Virus record (IMG/VR): IMGVR_UViG_2693429554_000013
From: a virus
Taxonomy: Duplodnaviria; Heunggongvirae; Uroviricota; Caudoviricetes
Strand: one strand, 5' to 3'
Length of the DNA stretch: 34,429 nt
Under the pieces are notes generated by a model that was given only the letters and a program-made list of their open reading frames with translations, searched no databases and had not been told where the DNA came from. A program made the position numbers and the translations under genes. Positions 2,979 to 34,429 of the stretch are shown piece by piece. The number at the start of each line of letters is the position of its first letter. Position 1 is the first letter of the stretch.

Positions 2979-3329
2979 ATGAAAAAAAACGCTAATAATC
3001 CATACTCCAAATTTCGTAATGGCGTAGAACGCCATGCTAACCGTTTCGCTACCAGCGCATCACGTAGCAGCTCTCGCTACAGCCTGAGCGAAACACACGC
3101 AACGCCGGATGGCTACCCAGTAAAACAAATCGGCGAGCATACCTGGCTGATTGAGAAAGCTGGAATCGTGATCCACAAATGCCCACGCAATCCGTTTACC
3201 GGAAACCGCATTTTTGCACTGAGCAGCGGCGACAATCAGTTCGGGCAGGATTTCACATTATACGAAGCACTTCGCACGGTTGATCGTCTGCTTCGCGGGC
3301 AAAGTTTTATTAAACAGGCTGATTTATAA
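2979..3329 (+). CDS. Hypothetical early protein
   Basis: 116 aa ORF in the early operon; no recognisable motif. Confidence 0.5.
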   Translation: MKKNANNPYSKFRNGVERHANRFATSASRSSSRYSLSETHATPDGYPVKQIGEHTWLIEKAGIVIHKCPRNPFTGNRIFALSSGDNQFGQDFTLYEALRTVDRLLRGQSFIKQADL

Positions 3330-3339
3330 CAGGTGTTTT

Positions 3340-3627
3340 ATGACCAAAGACCATGCACAAGGTGTATTTATCCGTTTTATTGATTTTCGCGGTGAACTGT
3401 TATTACGTGCATCCGCTATTGACGGAGTGACTCCGGCGGGTAAAAACGGAGCCGACGAAGCCACTTACGTTTATCTGAACGGCACGCGACTGCTTGTGGA
3501 ACTTCCGTACCAGACCGTACGAGAAATCATTAGCGAAGCTGAAAAGGCACACCAGGTTAATGGCGATGAACCCTATATCGAAATTATTTGTATGGATTCA
3601 GAAGCTGAAATACAGAAAGCAGATTAA
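3340..3627 (+). CDS. Hypothetical early protein
   Basis: ORF track begins at 3280 overlapping the previous gene; ATG at 3340 chosen as more plausible start. Confidence 0.45.
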   Translation: MTKDHAQGVFIRFIDFRGELLLRASAIDGVTPAGKNGADEATYVYLNGTRLLVELPYQTVREIISEAEKAHQVNGDEPYIEIICMDSEAEIQKAD

Positions 3628-6380: not shown

Positions 6381-9203
6381 ATGACGACAGAGTACATCAG
6401 GGACTGGCAACAACCGCGCCACGCAGTCGGTCGCGAAGGAACAGGGATCCCCGCACCTGAGTCTGCACTTTCCTCCTGGCTGGATGCCTACCGGACTGAG
6501 AACGAGCGCCGCCAGGAAATGGCTGATGCGGCGTTCTCCGCCACGCCGCTGGGCAACCTGATTAATAAAAGCCTGGACGCACAGGAAAAACAGGACAAAA
6601 CCATCACCCTGGCAGGAGATGCCAGAAAGCAGGCACGCGGCGCGGTGGATGAAGCCATGGCCTCGCTGCGCCTGCTGCCGTCCTATCTGCGCGATCCGCT
6701 TATTCGCCACCTCTCCTTCCTGCGCAAAAAACAGGAAGCCGATCGCCGGAAAGGCAAAAAGAGCTGGCAGGCTGAACGCTACGCGCGCGGAACCCTGCGC
6801 AAAATATTCGAACGTCTGGACCGCACCGACCACCGCTGGCTGACACCGGGTTATCGCTCCCTTGCAGGACGCGAACGCCTGGATGATTTGCTTTACCTGC
6901 CGCAGCTCAACAAGCACCAGATACAGACGCTGGCCACCATGACGGCGGCGATGTTCAGCAGCACCTTCGAAAAACTCTGCGATGGCTTTGGCGCGACTGA
7001 TGGCGAGCTGACCATGGATGTAACCCTGAAGGCGTATCAGATGCTGGCCCGCATGGCGTTACACCTGCACGCCATGCCTCCGCATTATGACGCACTGACA
7101 ACAGATAAAGACCGGAGGAACGAACCGGATACGGAGCTGCTGCCGGGCGCAGTCCTTCGCCTGACTTGTGCGGAATGGTGGAAACGCAAACTGTGGCTGT
7201 TACGTTGCGAGTGGAGAGAAGAACAACTCCGCGCCGCCTGTCTGGTTTCCAGAAAAACATCGCCCTATCTGAGCCAGGACGCATTAAGCGAGTTTCGCGC
7301 ACAGCGCGAGAAAACACGCGATTTCCTGAAAAGTTTCATGCTGGAAAACGAAGACGGGTTCACGATTGATCTCGAGACGGTGTATTACGCGGGAGTAAGT
7401 AACCCGGTTCACCGTAAGGCAGAAATGATGGCCACCATGAAGGGGCTGGAACTTCTGGCCGAAGCCCGTGGCGACAAAGCGGTGTTTCTGACCGTCACCT
7501 GCCCGTCAAAATACCACGCCACAACAGAGAACGGTCATCCGAATCCCAAATGGAACGGGGCCACCATGCGCGACTCCAGCGATTACCTGGTTAACACGTT
7601 TTTTGCGGCGGTCCGCAAAAAACTGAACCGCGACGGCCTGCGCTGGTATGGCATCCGCACGGTGGAGCCTCACCATGACGGCACCGTGCACTGGCACATG
7701 ATGGTCTTTGCTCATCCGGAAGAAATCGACAGCATCGTGGCCATCACCCGCGATATTGCCATTCAGGAAGACCGCCACGAGCTGGGCGATGACATAACTC
7801 CGCGTTTTAAGGCGGAGTACGTCGACGGCTCAAAAGGCACGCCAACCAGCTACATCGCCACCTACATCGGAAAGAACCTGGACAGCCGCGCCGTGGATGG
7901 CATCGACCCGAAAACGGGCAAGCCACGCGTTGACCACGAAACCGGAAAATCAATGGCCGAGAGTGTGGAACGCGCCATCGGCTGGGCGCGCCTTCACCGG
8001 GTCCGCCAGTTCCAGTTCTTTGGCATCCCCTCCCGTCAGGTATGGCGTGAACTCCGCCGCCTTGCCAGCCAGATGGCACGCAACCCGGAAGGCCCACAAC
8101 GGCTGAAGGATGATGCAATGGATGCGGTACTCGCTGCCGCTGATGCCGGGTGTTTTGCCACCTACATTGAGAAACAGGGCGGCGTACTTGTTCCACGCAA
8201 AGACTACCTGATTCGCACCGCCTACGACCTCGCAGATGAGCTGAACGATTACGGTGAACAGAGCGTACAGATTTACGGGATCTGGTCGCCGCTCATCGGG
8301 GAGTCTTCCCGCGTATGCACGCATCCGGATAACTGGAAGCTGGTAAGACGCAAACCGGAAGCGGAAGACAGCGCCCGCGAAAATGGTTTTGACCTTCAGG
8401 GCGGCCCTGCCGCCCCTTGGACTCGTGGCAATAACTGTCCCCATGTACAGGAAACGGACAACAACGGGACAGAACAGCCGGAAGAACGGCCAGCACCGTG
8501 GCCGCAGCTCCCTGGCGGCGTTGAAGTGAACGAATGGATGCGCTCACTGAAACGGCACGAACGCCGGGCGCTGATGCGTTCGCTGCGTGACAAGCAGGCA
8601 AAAAACAGCAGTGATGAAATGCAGAACTGGACACAGAGCCGCAAACAGCCACAGCCTTTGCCTGATAACCACGAATTACTCGCTAAAGAATGGCGGGAGT
8701 CTGCCGAATCTCTCGGCCTGCATATCGGTGAACAGCAGATGCAGCACCTGTTACGGGGCGGCAGCCTGTACGTTGACGGCAGCATCATTGCACCACAGGG
8801 ATTTGAAATTGTACGCAAACCGGATACCCGCCCGGACAGCCGAATCACACAGCTCTGGCAGCACCTGAGCCGTAATCACGGCGTAAGCAGCACGGAGATC
8901 CGCCATAACCCGGTCGCCAGCTATCTGGCACAGCTGGGGGCATCAGACCCCGAAGCCGCCGCACGTCTGGCATCCACACTTCAGCAGGACCAGAACACCA
9001 TGAAAACCCCCGTTACCGTGCTTTCTGACATGCTGCGCGTCATCCGTGACGCAGAGCACGCACAGAGAATCAGTGAAACAACTGAACGCGCCCGCCGCAA
9101 AGCAGACCTGCTGCGGGGTGGCCTGACCAGTGGAAACAAAAAACAGACAGAAACGGGATTCACAAATCCCGTAAATGAGCAAAAAACGCACCGCGATATA
9201 TGA
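6381..9203 (+). CDS. Rolling-circle replication initiator endonuclease, P2 gpA family
   Basis: 940 aa; metal-binding motif EPHHDGTVHWHMMVF and paired-tyrosine motif YIATYIGK typical of the P2 A / phiX174 A superfamily; long C-terminal region. Confidence 0.85.
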   Translation: MTTEYIRDWQQPRHAVGREGTGIPAPESALSSWLDAYRTENERRQEMADAAFSATPLGNLINKSLDAQEKQDKTITLAGDARKQARGAVDEAMASLRLLPSYLRDPLIRHLSFLRKKQEADRRKGKKSWQAERYARGTLRKIFERLDRTDHRWLTPGYRSLAGRERLDDLLYLPQLNKHQIQTLATMTAAMFSSTFEKLCDGFGATDGELTMDVTLKAYQMLARMALHLHAMPPHYDALTTDKDRRNEPDTELLPGAVLRLTCAEWWKRKLWLLRCEWREEQLRAACLVSRKTSPYLSQDALSEFRAQREKTRDFLKSFMLENEDGFTIDLETVYYAGVSNPVHRKAEMMATMKGLELLAEARGDKAVFLTVTCPSKYHATTENGHPNPKWNGATMRDSSDYLVNTFFAAVRKKLNRDGLRWYGIRTVEPHHDGTVHWHMMVFAHPEEIDSIVAITRDIAIQEDRHELGDDITPRFKAEYVDGSKGTPTSYIATYIGKNLDSRAVDGIDPKTGKPRVDHETGKSMAESVERAIGWARLHRVRQFQFFGIPSRQVWRELRRLASQMARNPEGPQRLKDDAMDAVLAAADAGCFATYIEKQGGVLVPRKDYLIRTAYDLADELNDYGEQSVQIYGIWSPLIGESSRVCTHPDNWKLVRRKPEAEDSARENGFDLQGGPAAPWTRGNNCPHVQETDNNGTEQPEERPAPWPQLPGGVEVNEWMRSLKRHERRALMRSLRDKQAKNSSDEMQNWTQSRKQPQPLPDNHELLAKEWRESAESLGLHIGEQQMQHLLRGGSLYVDGSIIAPQGFEIVRKPDTRPDSRITQLWQHLSRNHGVSSTEIRHNPVASYLAQLGASDPEAAARLASTLQQDQNTMKTPVTVLSDMLRVIRDAEHAQRISETTERARRKADLLRGGLTSGNKKQTETGFTNPVNEQKTHRDI

Positions 9204-9244
9204 AGCGCGCACAAAACAGGCAAAAACGGGATTTAAAAATCCCG
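9152..9244. promoter_or_regulatory. Two 20-bp palindromes ACGGGATT-N4-AATCCCGT 73 bp apart, upstream of parM; candidate parC centromere/operator
   Basis: Palindromes at 9152-9171 (inside the 3' end of the gpA-like gene) and 9225-9244; part of a ~40-bp direct duplication. Confidence 0.45.
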
Positions 9245-9279
9245 TAAACGATTAATTAACCAACATAAGGAAAAGCGAC

Positions 9280-10239
9280 ATGAAAATTTGTATCGACGAC
9301 GGCTCCACCAACATCAAGCTGGCATGGACTGAGAATGGCGAACGCCGCAACGCCATCAGCCCGAACAGCTTCAAGTCGGAATGGTCTGCGCCGTTCGGTG
9401 GCATGCAGCCCGCGAACTACATGCTTGATGGCGTGCGCTATGGTTTTGATCCGGTCAGCGATCGCTTTGTCCAGACGACCGACACGCAATACCAGTACAG
9501 CGATGTGAATGTCATTGCCATTCATCACGCGCTGGTCAAATCAGGCATCACACCACAGGAAGTGGATGTGGTTGTCACCCTGCCACTGAGCGAGTATTTC
9601 GATACAAACGCACAGCCGGACATGGCCAACATCAACCGCAAAAAAGCGAACGTCATGCGCCCGGTGGAGTACCAGAACGGCGAAGCATTCACTATCCGTA
9701 ACGTACGGGTTATGCCTGAATCCATTCCGGCTGGCTTTAAGGCACTGGCTGACATGAGTCCGTTTGAATCCCTGCTGATTGTGGATTTGGGCGGAACCAC
9801 GCTGGATGTGGCAAAGGTTCAGGGGCAACTGGCAGGTATCAGCCAGGTGTTTTGCGATCCACACGTAGGCGTTTCTCTGATGGCCGATGCCGTGCTGTCG
9901 GTGATGGCCACCAACGGTATGCGCACCAGTCACCACATCGCCAATACCATTATCGAACATCGCCACGATGAAGCCTGGCTGCGCCAGCACATCCACAATG
10001 ACGCGCATTACGCCAGCCTGATGGCAGTTATTCGTGAAAAGGAGGAAACACTGAAACAACGCGTGATCCGCGCGCTGGCGGGTTTTTCGGGTTACGGGCG
10101 GGTGATGGTTGTAGGTGGAGGAGCGGAGATTGTGGCACCCGCTATCCGCGAAGCCTGCGGAGTTAATGCGACTTTCATCGCGGACGGGGTGCCACAGTTT
10201 GCTCTGGTTAATGGGCTGTACGCAATGGACAAGGAGTAA
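9280..10239 (+). CDS. parM: ParM/StbA-family actin-like segregation ATPase
   Basis: 319 aa; N-terminus MKICIDDGSTNIKLAW and motifs ISPNSFK, YQYSDVNV, LIVDLGGTTLDV match my recollection of plasmid R1 ParM. Confidence 0.85.
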   Translation: MKICIDDGSTNIKLAWTENGERRNAISPNSFKSEWSAPFGGMQPANYMLDGVRYGFDPVSDRFVQTTDTQYQYSDVNVIAIHHALVKSGITPQEVDVVVTLPLSEYFDTNAQPDMANINRKKANVMRPVEYQNGEAFTIRNVRVMPESIPAGFKALADMSPFESLLIVDLGGTTLDVAKVQGQLAGISQVFCDPHVGVSLMADAVLSVMATNGMRTSHHIANTIIEHRHDEAWLRQHIHNDAHYASLMAVIREKEETLKQRVIRALAGFSGYGRVMVVGGGAEIVAPAIREACGVNATFIADGVPQFALVNGLYAMDKE

Positions 10240-10243
10240 ATCA

Positions 10244-10558
10244 ATGACGACACCAACCAGACGGATAAGTTTCTATCTGAAGCCCGCCGTCGTCAAGAGC
10301 GAACGGGAGGCGTGTAATTACCTCGACAGCCTGCCAGCCTCCGAACGCAGCCGCGCACAACGCGCGGCTTTTCTGGCTGGACTGGCTCTTATAAAACGCA
10401 CCCCCGCGTTGGCGTATTCGCTGGCAGAATGGTCAGAAGACGAAATACGGATGCCACCGCTACCAGTACAGCCTGAAAAACCGGCGCAACCAGCAGCAGA
10501 CAGCGCCCCCCATATGCAGCAGGTGAAAAAGAATATTCAGGCGTTTTTCCCGAAGTGA
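10244..10558 (+). CDS. parR: ParR/StbB-like centromere-binding adaptor
   Basis: 104 aa; RRISFYLKPAVVKSEREACNYLDSLPASERSRAQRAAFLAGLALIKR aligns with my recollection of R1 ParR; AGGAG RBS; ORF-track start 10115 is in frame but overlaps parM. Confidence 0.7.
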   Translation: MTTPTRRISFYLKPAVVKSEREACNYLDSLPASERSRAQRAAFLAGLALIKRTPALAYSLAEWSEDEIRMPPLPVQPEKPAQPAADSAPHMQQVKKNIQAFFPK

Positions 10559-31220: not shown

Positions 31221-31767
31221 CGGGGAAGCCATTCTGCTGCGCAACATCACCGTCAGCGCCACCATGCAACTACCGGATAAAGATATGTCCGGACAGTCAA
31301 CCAGCACCACGAGCGCTCAGCAGGGAAACAAGGCTAAAGAGCTGCGCGTGTCGGGGGTTATTGACTTTAACGATGAAGCTATTCTGACCCGTATTTTTCA
31401 GCTTGCGGAGGCAACAGAAAGTAACGGAGCTAAAAAAACGTATCGCATTGCCAACGCTACCGCGAAGGCAATCAATATGCGACAGGGGGTATTTTCTGGT
31501 GGCATTGATGCCACGGAACAACAGGGGAAAATGCACTGGCAGGTCACCTTTACTCTCAGGGAAAAATTAAGCGTGCCGGAAAAAGCATCGGCACGCAGTG
31601 GCTCACAGAAAACAATCGCAAAGCAGCAGACACAGAACGGCAGTGAGCTGACGCCGGATAAAGGAATGAATACCCAGGAAACTTTCTGGAAAAATATCAA
31701 TGATGGTATTGGCTCCGGGCTGGACTGGATTGGCATCGGGAGCGTGAAAAAGGAAGGGAAAACATGA
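31192..31767 (+). CDS. Putative tail/baseplate protein
   Basis: 191 aa; upstream of and overlapping the large hub-like gene. Confidence 0.4.
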   Translation: MTQMIVLALDGEAILLRNITVSATMQLPDKDMSGQSTSTTSAQQGNKAKELRVSGVIDFNDEAILTRIFQLAEATESNGAKKTYRIANATAKAINMRQGVFSGGIDATEQQGKMHWQVTFTLREKLSVPEKASARSGSQKTIAKQQTQNGSELTPDKGMNTQETFWKNINDGIGSGLDWIGIGSVKKEGKT

Positions 31768-33461
31768 AATTAATACAACGCTGTATTATTAATGGCGAAC
31801 GGGTGGAAATTGCCGATATAAACCTTGTTCTTACCCTGAATGCTGCCGGTCGTGGCTTCATTTCTGTTAACAATCTGTCACCCGAACACAGCCTTGCCGG
31901 CGCAATGGTACAAATTGATCTCGGCCGTGACGGTGAAGCATGGCGCTATTTCTCCGGCTACATTGAGCGCGATCAACCTGCTGAAAATGGCTCACGTCGC
32001 CTTTTTATTCGTGAAGCGGCTGCTGTGCTGGATTTTGATTTCCCTTGCTCCATGCAACACCCGACGTTGCGGGGGGTACTCGATAATCTGGGGCGACAAA
32101 GCGGTATCGTTTTTATCACTCCGGATGCGGATTATGCCAGTATACCAACTCCCTACATCACCCACAGCGGCAGCGGAGCACAACTGCTCAGCCAACTGGG
32201 GCGAGCATTCAGTATCAGCGATTACGTCTGGCACCCTATGCCGGACGGTTCTGTATTTGTGGGAAGCGCAGCTGATTCACGATTTGCCAGTATTACAATG
32301 CCGGATATTCCGCAACAGTACACACTCGGGCAAAGCGGCGGAAACAGCATCGACATCATGTTTATGGAAACTGTGCGACCGGGCGTGAACCTACCGTCTG
32401 GGCGCATTACCCGTGTAGCCCTCAACAACGAGAAAATGACCCTGACATGGGAGCGCCTTACCGCCACGGGTAACCCTGTTTCCAAATCACCATTACGCAG
32501 ACAAATGGAAACACAGTTCCCGGAACTGGCCAGCGGTACGCTACATACCCGGCTGGCGCGCGTCATTGCGCCAACGGAGCCCACCACCCTGGGCGATGTG
32601 GCCGACAGTTTCCGCCCACGCTACGCCGTCGATGTGCAGTTGCTTGATGAGAACGGCAACGATAAAAGCGACACGCCCGTTTACCCGGCAGTACCGCTCC
32701 CCGTCCCCATGGCTGGCAGTGAGGCGGGATGTTTTGCCTACCCACCGGCAGGCACCATCGTGGAAATATCCAACATTGAAGGACGTCCGGACAAACCCGT
32801 TATCAGGCAAATCTTACCCGCTGGCCATAACCTGCCTGATGTAAAGCCCGGCGAACAGCTGCAGCAACAGCGCGCAGAAGTGTTTCAGCGCGTCACGGCT
32901 GACGGAAGCTGGCACAGAGAAACCGACCAGCAAATCAGAGAACATTCAGCCCGGCGAACCATTAACAGCGATCAGGAGGAACGCACAACAACAACCAGAA
33001 CAACCACAGTACAGGCAAACGATATAACCAGCGTTCTGGGAACCAGCAAGCTAATGGCAGGACAAATAGAGCACCTTACTACCGGCCATTACGCGATCGC
33101 AGCCAGTGAGCATATCCAGATGGTAGCGCAGGATTTGCTGACTAAACTCAAAGGGGCGACATCCACGATTGAACACGACCTTACTGAAAACGTGGGAGGC
33201 CGCAGAACATGCCGAGCGGACGGTGGCCTGGAGTTTACAGCCCCGACAGTATTTATTGGTCGCGGTGACTCACGGGAAAAATCCGGACTTAATCTGCTGA
33301 CGTTGTTGATTGATATTCTGGATCTGGTTCAGTTGCTGGCCACACACACTGCAAACCACACCCACAGCAACACCGGCGCACCAACAAACAGCAGCGAACT
33401 TGCCGCAGACGCCCAACAGGCTACGAGCCTGCGCGAAAAATACGGTGACCTTATCGCCTGA
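31764..33461 (+). CDS. Putative baseplate hub/spike protein (gpD-like)
   Basis: 565 aa; last gene of the tail operon, where P2-like phages carry D; assignment by position and size only. Confidence 0.45.
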   Translation: MKLIQRCIINGERVEIADINLVLTLNAAGRGFISVNNLSPEHSLAGAMVQIDLGRDGEAWRYFSGYIERDQPAENGSRRLFIREAAAVLDFDFPCSMQHPTLRGVLDNLGRQSGIVFITPDADYASIPTPYITHSGSGAQLLSQLGRAFSISDYVWHPMPDGSVFVGSAADSRFASITMPDIPQQYTLGQSGGNSIDIMFMETVRPGVNLPSGRITRVALNNEKMTLTWERLTATGNPVSKSPLRRQMETQFPELASGTLHTRLARVIAPTEPTTLGDVADSFRPRYAVDVQLLDENGNDKSDTPVYPAVPLPVPMAGSEAGCFAYPPAGTIVEISNIEGRPDKPVIRQILPAGHNLPDVKPGEQLQQQRAEVFQRVTADGSWHRETDQQIREHSARRTINSDQEERTTTTRTTTVQANDITSVLGTSKLMAGQIEHLTTGHYAIAASEHIQMVAQDLLTKLKGATSTIEHDLTENVGGRRTCRADGGLEFTAPTVFIGRGDSREKSGLNLLTLLIDILDLVQLLATHTANHTHSNTGAPTNSSELAADAQQATSLREKYGDLIA

Positions 33462-33497
33462 TCACCGGGCATAAAACCCCCATAAACGCCCCATCAC

Positions 33498-33526
33498 GCA
33501 ACGCACGGCTCCGGTCGTGCGTTTTC
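33498..33526 (+). terminator. Candidate terminator after the last tail gene
   Basis: AACGCACG-GCTCCGGT-CGTGCGTT hairpin followed by TTTT. Confidence 0.35.
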
Positions 33527-34005
33527 ATATCCGCCACCTGATTAATGCGTTCTGCGTGCCATTTCGGCGCTGTATGCGCACACCACGTAAACGGTGTGAC
33601 GTAAAGCGTGAGGTGACGTAAACCGCGCTACCCCCTCCAACCCGCGGGTTTTGTGTCGAAACAGTTTTTCAGTTTTCTGCCGTGCAAAAATGACCGTCAG
33701 CCCGCGCAGTAACTGAGGGAAAAGCGAAGATCTGAAATTTCACGCTTTGAAATTTTTTGCAGTTTTCAGAGGGATTTTTACGATCTCATGAATGGCAGGA
33801 GAAAGAAAACAGGCTGATATTAAAAGAGTTTTCATACTTTACGTGGGACAAGACACGATCGCGAAAGGATCGCGTTAAACAACCCTCAAACAAAGAAGCC
33901 AGACGCAGCGCGGCCTGCGCAAAATCAAGAGTCAGAATTAAACTGAAAAAAGGATCAATACCGCGCCTCGATTGCACATGACGATCTACGCAGCAACAGG
34001 ACGAA

Positions 34006-34030
34006 AAAAACCGGCGCGAACGCCGGCGGA
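34006..34030 (-). terminator. Candidate minus-strand Rho-independent terminator
   Basis: A7 followed by CCGGCG-CGAA-CGCCGG on plus strand, i.e. hairpin plus T7 on minus strand. Confidence 0.4.
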
Positions 34031-34288
34031 AGCATGTATCAAATGCGTGACTGAATAATGTCTGCGGTCGGGAATTTTATATCAGAAGGCTGAGAGGCCT
34101 CAACGGATTGAAACAAGGGAAAAAACCAGGCTAGAATTCGCGCGGGTGCCTTTCGGCTGATGGTCGGAGGGAACACCCGAAGGCCGGATGTGGAAAGGCC
34201 CCGGAAAACATTTCTGTTTAACCGAGGCCCTAACCCGTCAACCTAGCAAGTGATAGGTTAGCGCCTCTCCAACAAAGGAGCAAGCGCT

Positions 34289-34429
34289 ATGTCGCAAAAA
34301 TCGCTTACGGCCATCACGTTCTGCGTGACGGTAATCCTCATCATCTGGATGCTGCACGGTTCGCTGTGTGAAATACGGATGAGCTTCTGGGGAGCGGAGT
34401 TTGCGGCGTTCTTACAGTGTAAGCAGTAA
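34289..34429 (+). CDS. hok: Hok/Gef-family type I toxin peptide (HokA-like)
   Basis: 46 aa MSQKSLTAITFCVTVILIIWMLHGSLCEIRMSFWGAEFAAFLQCKQ; TM helix plus SLCEIR...AAF signature; SD AAAGGAG 7 bp upstream. Confidence 0.75.
   Translation: MSQKSLTAITFCVTVILIIWMLHGSLCEIRMSFWGAEFAAFLQCKQ

Follow-up and report, generated by a model that had tools for sequence, protein, structure and literature searches.

The window analysed here, the whole 34,429-nucleotide (nt) stretch of virus DNA in IMG/VR record IMGVR_UViG_2693429554_000013, ends with a 46-residue Hok/Gef-family peptide gene that follows the last tail gene at a distance and is preceded by a structured leader. We conclude that this locus is very probably a type I toxin–antitoxin ('addiction') module of the hok/sok family, carried as prophage cargo. 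Its predicted RNA switch appears to match that of hok/mok/sok (parB) of plasmid R1 in all elements except the leader reading frame mok. The features of the module are as follows.

34108–34137, plus strand: sigma-70 promoter of hok (TTGAAA, 18-nt spacer, TAGAAT; 10 of 12 consensus positions matched)
34144–34429, plus strand: first 286 nt of the hok mRNA, predicted to continue about 122 nt past the window to a terminator
34144–34158, plus strand: tac, GGGUGCCUUUCGGCU, at the mRNA 5' end; its partners are fbi (at the 3' end), ucb or a local metastable hairpin
34190–34203, plus strand: ucb-like box, GUGGAAAGGCCCCG, pairing with tac in the consensus fold
34197–34229, plus strand: Sok-target hairpin of the full-length and leader folds, holding the conserved GAGG at 34224–34227
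34242–34254, plus strand: segment pairing with the 3' untranslated region (UTR) as helix 8 (12 pairs, 6 changed on both sides); also the predicted target of the Sok 5' tail
34261–34287, plus strand: hairpin sequestering the hok Shine–Dalgarno (SD) sequence (anti-SD CCUCUCC at 34264–34270, AAGGAG at 34275–34280)
34289–34429, plus strand: hok coding sequence, 46 amino acids (MSQKSLTAITFCVTVILIIWMLHGSLCEIRMSFWGAEFAAFLQCKQ); Pfam HOK_GEF, PHROG 251, RefSeq WP_000078920.1
34192–34248, minus strand: predicted Sok-like antisense RNA, about 57 nt, placed by homology with R1, SokB and SokC
34255–34283, minus strand: predicted Sok promoter, read from the sequence (TTGCTC at 34283–34278, 17-nt spacer, TAACCT at 34260–34255)

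The peptide belongs to the Hok family

Profile searches assign the 46-residue product to the Hok family. Pfam HOK_GEF (PF01848) matches with 30.1 bits against a gathering score of 22 (E = 3.7e-7, profile positions 5–42 of 42), PHROG 251 matches over its full length with 82.8 bits (E = 2.5e-23), and the RefSeq entry WP_000078920.1 is annotated as 'Hok/Gef family protein'. All residues of the Hok logo (M1, C16, T18, L30, C31, E32 and E41) are matched, here as M1, C12, T14, L26-C27-E28 and E37, the pattern being shifted by an N-terminus that is four residues shorter. The AAGGAG SD sequence lies 8 nt upstream of the hok ATG. An earlier note on this DNA, made from the sequence alone, had described a 46-residue Hok/Gef-type peptide with its own SD sequence and had staked that description on a Hok profile search, which agrees with it.

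The same note had called the peptide HokA-like, and this label holds with a limit. HokA is the nearest K-12 paralogue (20 of 46 residues identical, 43%, as against 11 of 46 for each of HokB and HokC) and provides the best NCBIfam match (NF007290), but the score of 35.8 bits stays under the cut-off of 89 and so under the equivalog threshold. The peptide is HokA-like, not HokA.

The 2026 Hok catalogue of Escalera-Maurer et al. already contains this exact peptide, as sequence 1628 of its alignment, and groups it with the peptides of cluster 72. Two peptides of that cluster, 72_1621 and 72_1589, were cloned for toxicity tests, in which 42 homologues were reported toxic and only 19_179, 60_1482 and 69_1540 of the 45 constructs did not (bioRxiv 10.1101/2025.08.07.668861). 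Since 72_1621 differs from the present peptide by one residue and is not among the three non-toxic constructs, we infer by analogy that the present peptide is toxic as well. The peptide is also under purifying selection, with pN/pS values of 0.04–0.43 for hok against its relatives.

The hok module is present in 1,551 of 5,426 complete Escherichia coli genomes (about 29%), nearly always on the chromosome, and on only 35 of 72,556 plasmids. Within the hok end of the window, only 34116–34429 matches sequenced phages, with 92–95% identity to P88-like Xuanwuvirus and 81% identity to Stx phages, in which the copy lies downstream of lom; the similarity to phage P88 and to the Stx phages starts at 34116–34120. 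The name 'MokW-like host killing', attached to the peptide through RefSeq and PHROG 251, is a misnomer because the open reading frame (ORF) is hok and not mok. Identity with hokW-sokW of prophage Sp5 was considered and rejected, as the published primers for that system encode MKQQKAM..., the start of a 51-residue HokD-like peptide at another locus. The element is otherwise an ordinary, already catalogued Hok module.

Predicted fold of the hok mRNA

Position 1 of the Rfam hok-leader model falls on the predicted hok transcript start, at about 34144. This model, RF01794, bears the name 'sok' and is, by its consensus, the sense-strand hok leader from the mRNA 5' end to the hok AUG. It matches 34144–34299 over its full length (model positions 1–157) with 45.7 bits and E = 8.5e-9, so that the covariance-model search proposed in the earlier note for the hok mRNA fold returns a significant match, though one below the gathering score of 59. 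The leader (34144–34291) folds at −60.3 kcal/mol (z = −3.65). It is as highly structured as the earlier note had claimed, whereas 'GC-rich' fits mildly at best, the GC content being only 0.55. The full transcript (408 nt), extended past the window using the identical genome sequence, folds at −182.5 kcal/mol (z = −7.65).

Among 29 non-redundant relatives, 93.2% of the cells are paired in the full-length structure, a percentage that is inflated because the structure was taken from one of the aligned sequences. Pairs changed on both sides number 26, as against 9.6 ± 1.9 in shuffles (0 of 500 reach 26) and 6–13 with slid partners. This covariation supports the predicted presence of the hok mRNA elements, namely the tac/fbi helix, ucb, the Sok-target hairpin and the sequestered hok SD sequence.

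In the minimum free energy fold, tac pairs with GGCCGAUAAGGCACCC (fbi), which lies 50–65 nt past the window end. The resulting helix has 15 pairs and is 95.1% paired across the 29 sequences; compensating tac/fbi changes are seen by eye in S. diarizonae and C. braakii (CGAU/AUCG and CGACC/GGUCG), where the alignment places them out of register. RNAalifold prefers the alternative pairing of tac with ucb (columns 29–43 with 76–89), and the 3'-truncated RNA folds a local 5' hairpin. In the full-length fold, the 3' half of the ucb-like box serves as the 5' arm of the Sok-target hairpin. The R1 mRNA has three mutually exclusive tac partners (summarised in PMC9841398), and the corresponding alternatives, the ucb pairing and the 5' metastable hairpin, occur in the predicted folds of the present RNA.

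Pairing of the 3' end with the Sok-recognition region, as seen for 34242–34254, parallels the finding given in the title of Thisted et al. 1994. The GAGG at 34224–34227 is kept in all but one of the aligned leaders. The hok SD hairpin has 94.7% of its cells paired across the 29 sequences and is found in the full-length and truncated folds, while the leader-only fold keeps only the CC/GG core of the anti-SD/SD pairing.

One relative stands apart. E. coli ECL27977 (locus L032, positions 3182–3546) has a divergent and apparently recombinant leader (5' GGACACC...), in which complementarity of the 5' end to the conserved fbi (GGCACCC) has been lost; this hok copy may be deregulated or dead.

The module lacks mok

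Hok synthesis in R1 requires the mok AUG, which is located 58 nt upstream of hok (PMC9841398). At the present locus, no frame beginning with ATG, GTG or TTG within 200 nt upstream reaches the hok SD sequence. All three frames are closed by stop codons (TAA 34231, TAG 34244, TGA 34251, TAG 34254 and TAG 34259), and the frame equivalent to R1 mok is open from 34234 to 34368 with no start codon. No start at the mok position was found in any of 93 cluster-72 loci, which comprise 37 distinct leaders. The same scan recovered its controls, the mokC ATG at −57 with GAGG 8 nt upstream and the mokB ATG at −58 with GAGG 7 nt upstream, as well as mok-like ORFs in Serratia, Chimaeribacter and Ewingella loci. 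The failure to find an overlapping mok frame with a start codon, reported in the earlier note for this locus, is confirmed and extends to the cluster. The cluster-72 leaders retain GAGG at the R1 mok-SD position with no start codon after it. Near-cognate mok starts after the GAGG were considered and rejected, since none is conserved and the frame shifts with indels. The conserved stop codon in CCCUAAC (UAA, UAG or UGA depending on the relative) was likewise rejected as the end of an upstream ORF, as an in-frame TAA lies four codons earlier (34219).

One explanation of this absence is that the locus is a translationally dead relic of hok/mok/sok that lost mok and whose native mRNA can no longer yield Hok. 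Inactivity of a similar kind is seen in many of the hok loci on the K-12 chromosome. A relic would account for the lack of a mok start in every cluster-72 leader, given that the mok AUG is essential in R1, for a hok SD hairpin that persists in the full-length and truncated predicted conformations, and for a hybrid leader such as that of ECL27977, whose 5' end has lost its complementarity to fbi. It is difficult to reconcile, however, with the purifying selection on the peptide, the compensatory changes in the RNA helices, the conservation of both promoters, the spread of the module over more than a quarter of the E. coli genomes and several phage lineages, and the toxicity reported for a near-identical peptide. 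We consider a relic unlikely.

A cryptic leader ORF that replaces mok is more doubtful still. Such an ORF would run from ATG 34160 or ATG 34188 through the Sok target to a stop 36–43 nt before the hok AUG, where the terminating ribosome would open the anti-SD strand. Both ATGs are widely conserved, and in 11 of 36 distinct leaders an ORF from the equivalent of one or the other runs into hok, spanning 61–87 codons in the same relative frame as R1 mok. This read-through nevertheless depends on small indels in a variable segment, which alter ORF length and frame, and the Stx-phage copies stop after 6–8 codons; we therefore treat the upstream ORFs as not conserved. Leaders with a long ORF seem no more frequent than expected by chance (an estimate, not a computed value), and neither ATG has a good SD sequence. 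Both ATGs also lie inside conserved RNA helices, which alone could explain their conservation.

Two relatives have mok-like arrangements. In Citrobacter braakii (locus L012, positions 1250–1360) a 34-codon upstream ORF ends in TGATG and overlaps the hok start, an arrangement that would suit a cryptic leader ORF, and hok in E. albertii (locus L009) is overlapped by a 79-codon ORF that starts at the conserved upstream ATG. Both are isolated exceptions in a cluster that otherwise lacks mok. Mok-less hok loci may have been described before; the 2026 catalogue left mok aside.

A predicted Sok-like antisense RNA

The earlier note expected an antisense RNA in this region, and a Sok-like RNA can indeed be predicted on the minus strand at 34248–34192. 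The antisense strand of 34178–34250 is predicted to form a long hairpin (−29.7 kcal/mol, z = −3.24), with UUUCC after it. In both length and position relative to hok, the predicted RNA agrees with the K-12 annotation of SokC (59 nt, with its 5' end at −49 relative to the hokC ATG) and of SokB (57 nt). Its promoter fell below the threshold of the consensus scan and was not listed, and is therefore weak by consensus; only one of the aligned leaders lacks AGGTTAG, the complement of its −10 box. G·U pairs make up only 3 of 324 paired cells in the Sok-target hairpin, as against 464 of 2,986 elsewhere in the mRNA, and this near-exclusive Watson–Crick pairing fits a hairpin that needs to form on both strands. 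By analogy with R1, a Sok RNA would be made at this locus and would act on hok.

The 3' end that the earlier note had suggested for such an RNA, near 34006, does not agree with this position. The Sok equivalent would be antisense to 34192–34248, and the terminator stem at 34010–34027 was rejected as a Sok terminator because it lies 117 nt upstream of the hok mRNA start. That terminator is a separate element and not part of Sok.

The module is cargo of a P2-like prophage

The right-hand 968 nt of the window are 100% identical to E. coli 48956, whose annotation identifies the window as a P2-like prophage extending from the integrase gene to the hok stop codon. On either side of the prophage stands a copy of a 124-bp direct repeat (97 bp exact), one beside yecA and int and the other overlapping the tRNA-Leu(UAA) gene leuZ. 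The att core has only two copies in the genome stretch, enclosing int, hok and a 93-residue minus-strand ORF (PHROG 27544), so that hok and this ORF both lie inside the prophage. The unoccupied site of K-12 aligns with the left junction as far as the repeat and with the right junction beginning at the repeat; the two alignments overlap by exactly 124 bp, a segment that covers 3'ETS-leuZ and the 3' 55 nt of leuZ. This comparison with an uninfected strain, which the earlier note had recommended for locating the att sites, places attR 942–1065 nt past the window end, at leuZ/3'ETS-leuZ. The region downstream of the tail genes is not the right boundary of the prophage and does not contain attR, contrary to what that note had supposed.

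Related prophages carry the same baseplate genes, spacer and hok at at least four other chromosomal sites, for example beside flk, raiA/bamD and copA. The cargo after hok varies among them, and in strain A2 other cargo takes the place of hok after the first 495 nt of the spacer. Because hok lies between the att copies and moves with the prophage to other integration sites, it is phage-carried cargo (a 'moron'), located towards the right end of a P2-like prophage at leuZ, within a variable cargo region, and not chromosomal flank. The earlier note had held that this choice could not be made from the window, and it is the data from outside the window that decide it. That the toxin gene is instead chromosomal flank, with attR inside 33462–34140, finds support only in the terminators and the long stretch free of ORFs downstream of the last tail gene and is already refuted, with a residual probability that is practically nil, by the two att copies around hok, the exact joining of the K-12 empty site at the repeats, the company that hok and the spacer keep with the same tail genes at other sites, and the presence of hok in sequenced P88-like and Stx phage genomes. 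A Mu-like transposable phage was also considered, given relatives at several chromosomal sites, and rejected in view of the integrase and the 124-bp att repeats at a tRNA gene.

The last base of the window is also the last base of the hok stop codon, and 20 of 80 IMG/VR loci (L038, L043 and L046 among them) end on that base, which marks the window end as an artefact of provirus trimming. Gene-based trimming seemingly removes about 1 kb of real prophage, including the 93-residue secreted-protein gene and attR.

Within 9000–33461 of the window, only the segment encoding the replication endonuclease, ParM and ParR (about 9000–10440) matches sequenced P88-like phages, at 95% identity. A megablast search of 50,697 phage records returned nothing for the head, tail and baseplate genes. 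The prophage is thus mosaic, with a late region absent from that phage collection, and it encodes a plasmid-type ParMR partition system.

Several further observations concern the prophage ends and cargo. In the E. coli 48956 region (locus L003, positions 10005–10128 and 45598–45721), the att identity spans the whole 3'ETS-leuZ small RNA sponge annotated in K-12, which gives the lysogen an additional 3'ETS-leuZ copy beside int that differs by one mismatch. About 140 nt inside attR and past the window (L003, 45383–45462) lies a decayed hok-leader-like stretch, approximately 70% identical to leader positions 5–89; no Hok ORF follows it and Rfam did not detect it at E ≤ 1. The region downstream of hok (examples in L029, L030 and L032) is a hot spot for cargo exchange: the raiA-integrated prophages carry a Com-family regulator and a DNA methyltransferase after hok, a com/mom-like pair, and other related prophages carry a TM2-domain protein, a serine acetyltransferase or a DUF4875 protein there.

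Comparison with known hok/sok systems

With the R1 system the present module shares a Hok/Gef peptide, a predicted mRNA of about 400 nt closed by tac/fbi, ucb as alternative tac partner, pairing of the 3' end with the Sok-recognition region, a local anti-SD on the hok SD sequence, a predicted antisense promoter overlapping the hok SD region and a GAGG at the mok-SD position. It differs from R1 in having neither a mok start codon nor a mok ORF, in the length of the peptide (46 residues as against 52 for R1 Hok) and in its location on a prophage instead of a plasmid. The closest characterised paralogue, hokA/mokA/sokA of K-12, shares the SLCE and AAFL.C motifs among its identical residues, whereas hokA is chromosomal and has an annotated in-frame mokA. 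Cluster 72 of the Hok catalogue (PHROG 251) includes the exact present peptide, and that catalogue covered the coding sequence only, with mok, Sok and mRNA structure explicitly left aside (bioRxiv 10.1101/2025.08.07.668861).

hokW-sokW of the Stx2 prophage Sp5 is likewise a prophage-borne hok/sok module. It has been shown experimentally to be a toxin–antitoxin system that depends on RNase III and Hfq and speeds phage release (PMC8621323). It differs from the present module in locus, in Hok cluster and in its 51-residue HokD-like peptide. Stx phages also carry a cluster-72 copy, the 81% identical one downstream of lom.

Proposed mechanism of a mok-less hok/sok module

In the mechanism that we propose, the sigma-70 promoter would give rise to an mRNA of about 405 nt from about 34144. 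By analogy with R1, pairing of its ends through tac and fbi, together with the pairing of 34242–34254 with the 3' UTR, would keep the full-length mRNA stable and inert. Slow 3' trimming would then remove fbi, allowing tac to re-pair with ucb and thereby opening the Sok-target hairpin. As long as the short-lived Sok-like RNA of about 57 nt is supplied, its binding to this hairpin would lead to mRNA decay; once the antisense RNA is lost, the 46-residue membrane peptide would be made and the cell killed or arrested. For the present RNA, the inertness of the full-length form, the 3' processing, the ucb switch and the Sok-triggered decay are all carried over from R1.

With no mok to translate, control by blocking mok translation is not available to Sok. 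Its action would most likely consist in mRNA decay triggered by the duplex, or in masking the conserved single-stranded GAGG region, which would then serve ribosomes as a standby site. In E. coli tisB/istR-1, translation of a type I toxin with a structured start region depends on a single-stranded standby site for ribosomes farther upstream, and it is this site that the antisense RNA blocks. This system is unrelated in sequence and is a functional analogy only; it offers a possible model for mok-less Sok action, on the basis here of the conserved orphan GAGG. The role of the module may be to stabilise the prophage, or a phage-plasmid (ParM and ParR also being encoded), or to exclude other phages.

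Several points weigh against the locus being a working hok/sok module: (i) the Rfam model, built on classical loci, scores the leader below its gathering score; (ii) neither the full-length nor the truncated fold frees the hok SD sequence from pairing, and the leader-only fold does so only in part; (iii) the pair counts are based on a structure taken from one of the sequences in the alignment; (iv) all RNA ends at the locus are predictions; (v) the Sok −10 box TAACCT matches the consensus at only three of six positions and the U-tract of the Sok terminator is short (UUUCC); and (vi) as the mok AUG is essential in R1, a mok-less copy could be translationally silent.

hok/sok is the textbook case of antisense control by translational coupling through a leader ORF. 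If a widespread and conserved phage-borne branch keeps all RNA elements except mok, either Sok works by another route or the copies are silent passengers maintained by selection. We put forward tentatively, at somewhat less than even confidence, that the cluster-72 hok genes form a natural mok-less branch in which Sok exerts control without translational coupling, through decay or by blocking a GAGG standby site, and Hok translation is initiated at its own structured SD sequence. Regulation without mok would be the one, modestly interesting deviation of an ordinary module. The analysis also corrects the position of the prophage boundary, the 'MokW-like' name and the confusion with hokW-sokW.

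The spacer between the tail genes and hok

The last tail gene (31764–33461) encodes a 565-residue protein that matches the PHROG 2258 baseplate protein. Three features lie between it and the hok promoter.

33462–34107, no strand: non-coding spacer between the baseplate gene and the hok promoter; not the prophage end
33500–33528, plus strand: intrinsic terminator, likely of the tail/baseplate operon (10-bp stem at 33500–33523, −17 kcal/mol, z = −3.77, followed by UUUUC)
34003–34027, minus strand: intrinsic terminator from the consensus scan (stem 34027–34010, 7 bp of which 6 are G-C, followed by T7)

The earlier note had described about 830 bp free of convincing ORFs after the last tail gene, with two hairpin terminators, and this description is accurate. 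The baseplate gene end (33461) and the hok start (34289) are 827 nt apart, with longest ORFs of 74 residues on the plus strand and 63 residues on the minus strand, and both terminators lie close to where that note had put them. The spacer at 33462–34107 is found in only 50 of 5,426 E. coli genomes, and its first 330 nt or so are nearly invariant among related prophages. A coding role for the 74- and 63-residue ORFs was rejected: a Pfam search gave no match for either, PGAP annotates nothing in the spacer in any of the 50 genomes that hold it, and relatives show substitutions and a 1-nt indel. In 33300–34429 and beyond, the Rfam search returned nothing credible except sok and tRNA.

The plus-strand hairpin was not among the terminators reported by the consensus scan; its stem substitutions in relatives preserve pairing, as judged by eye. 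Within the near-invariant segment that follows it, 33585–33627 holds three direct repeats of (G)ACGTAAA(S)CG with spacings of 14 and 17 nt, and ACGTAAA repeats are not enriched elsewhere in the window (7 matches as against 3.2 expected). The minus-strand terminator adjoins the hok/sok unit and is separate from it. A promoter-like site on the minus strand at 34103–34074 (TTGAGG, 18-nt spacer, TAAAAT) would, with the stem at 34027–34010, yield an RNA of about 64 nt divergent from hok. This candidate has no Rfam match and an unremarkable fold (z = −1.13), and its sequence block is kept in five of six related prophages.

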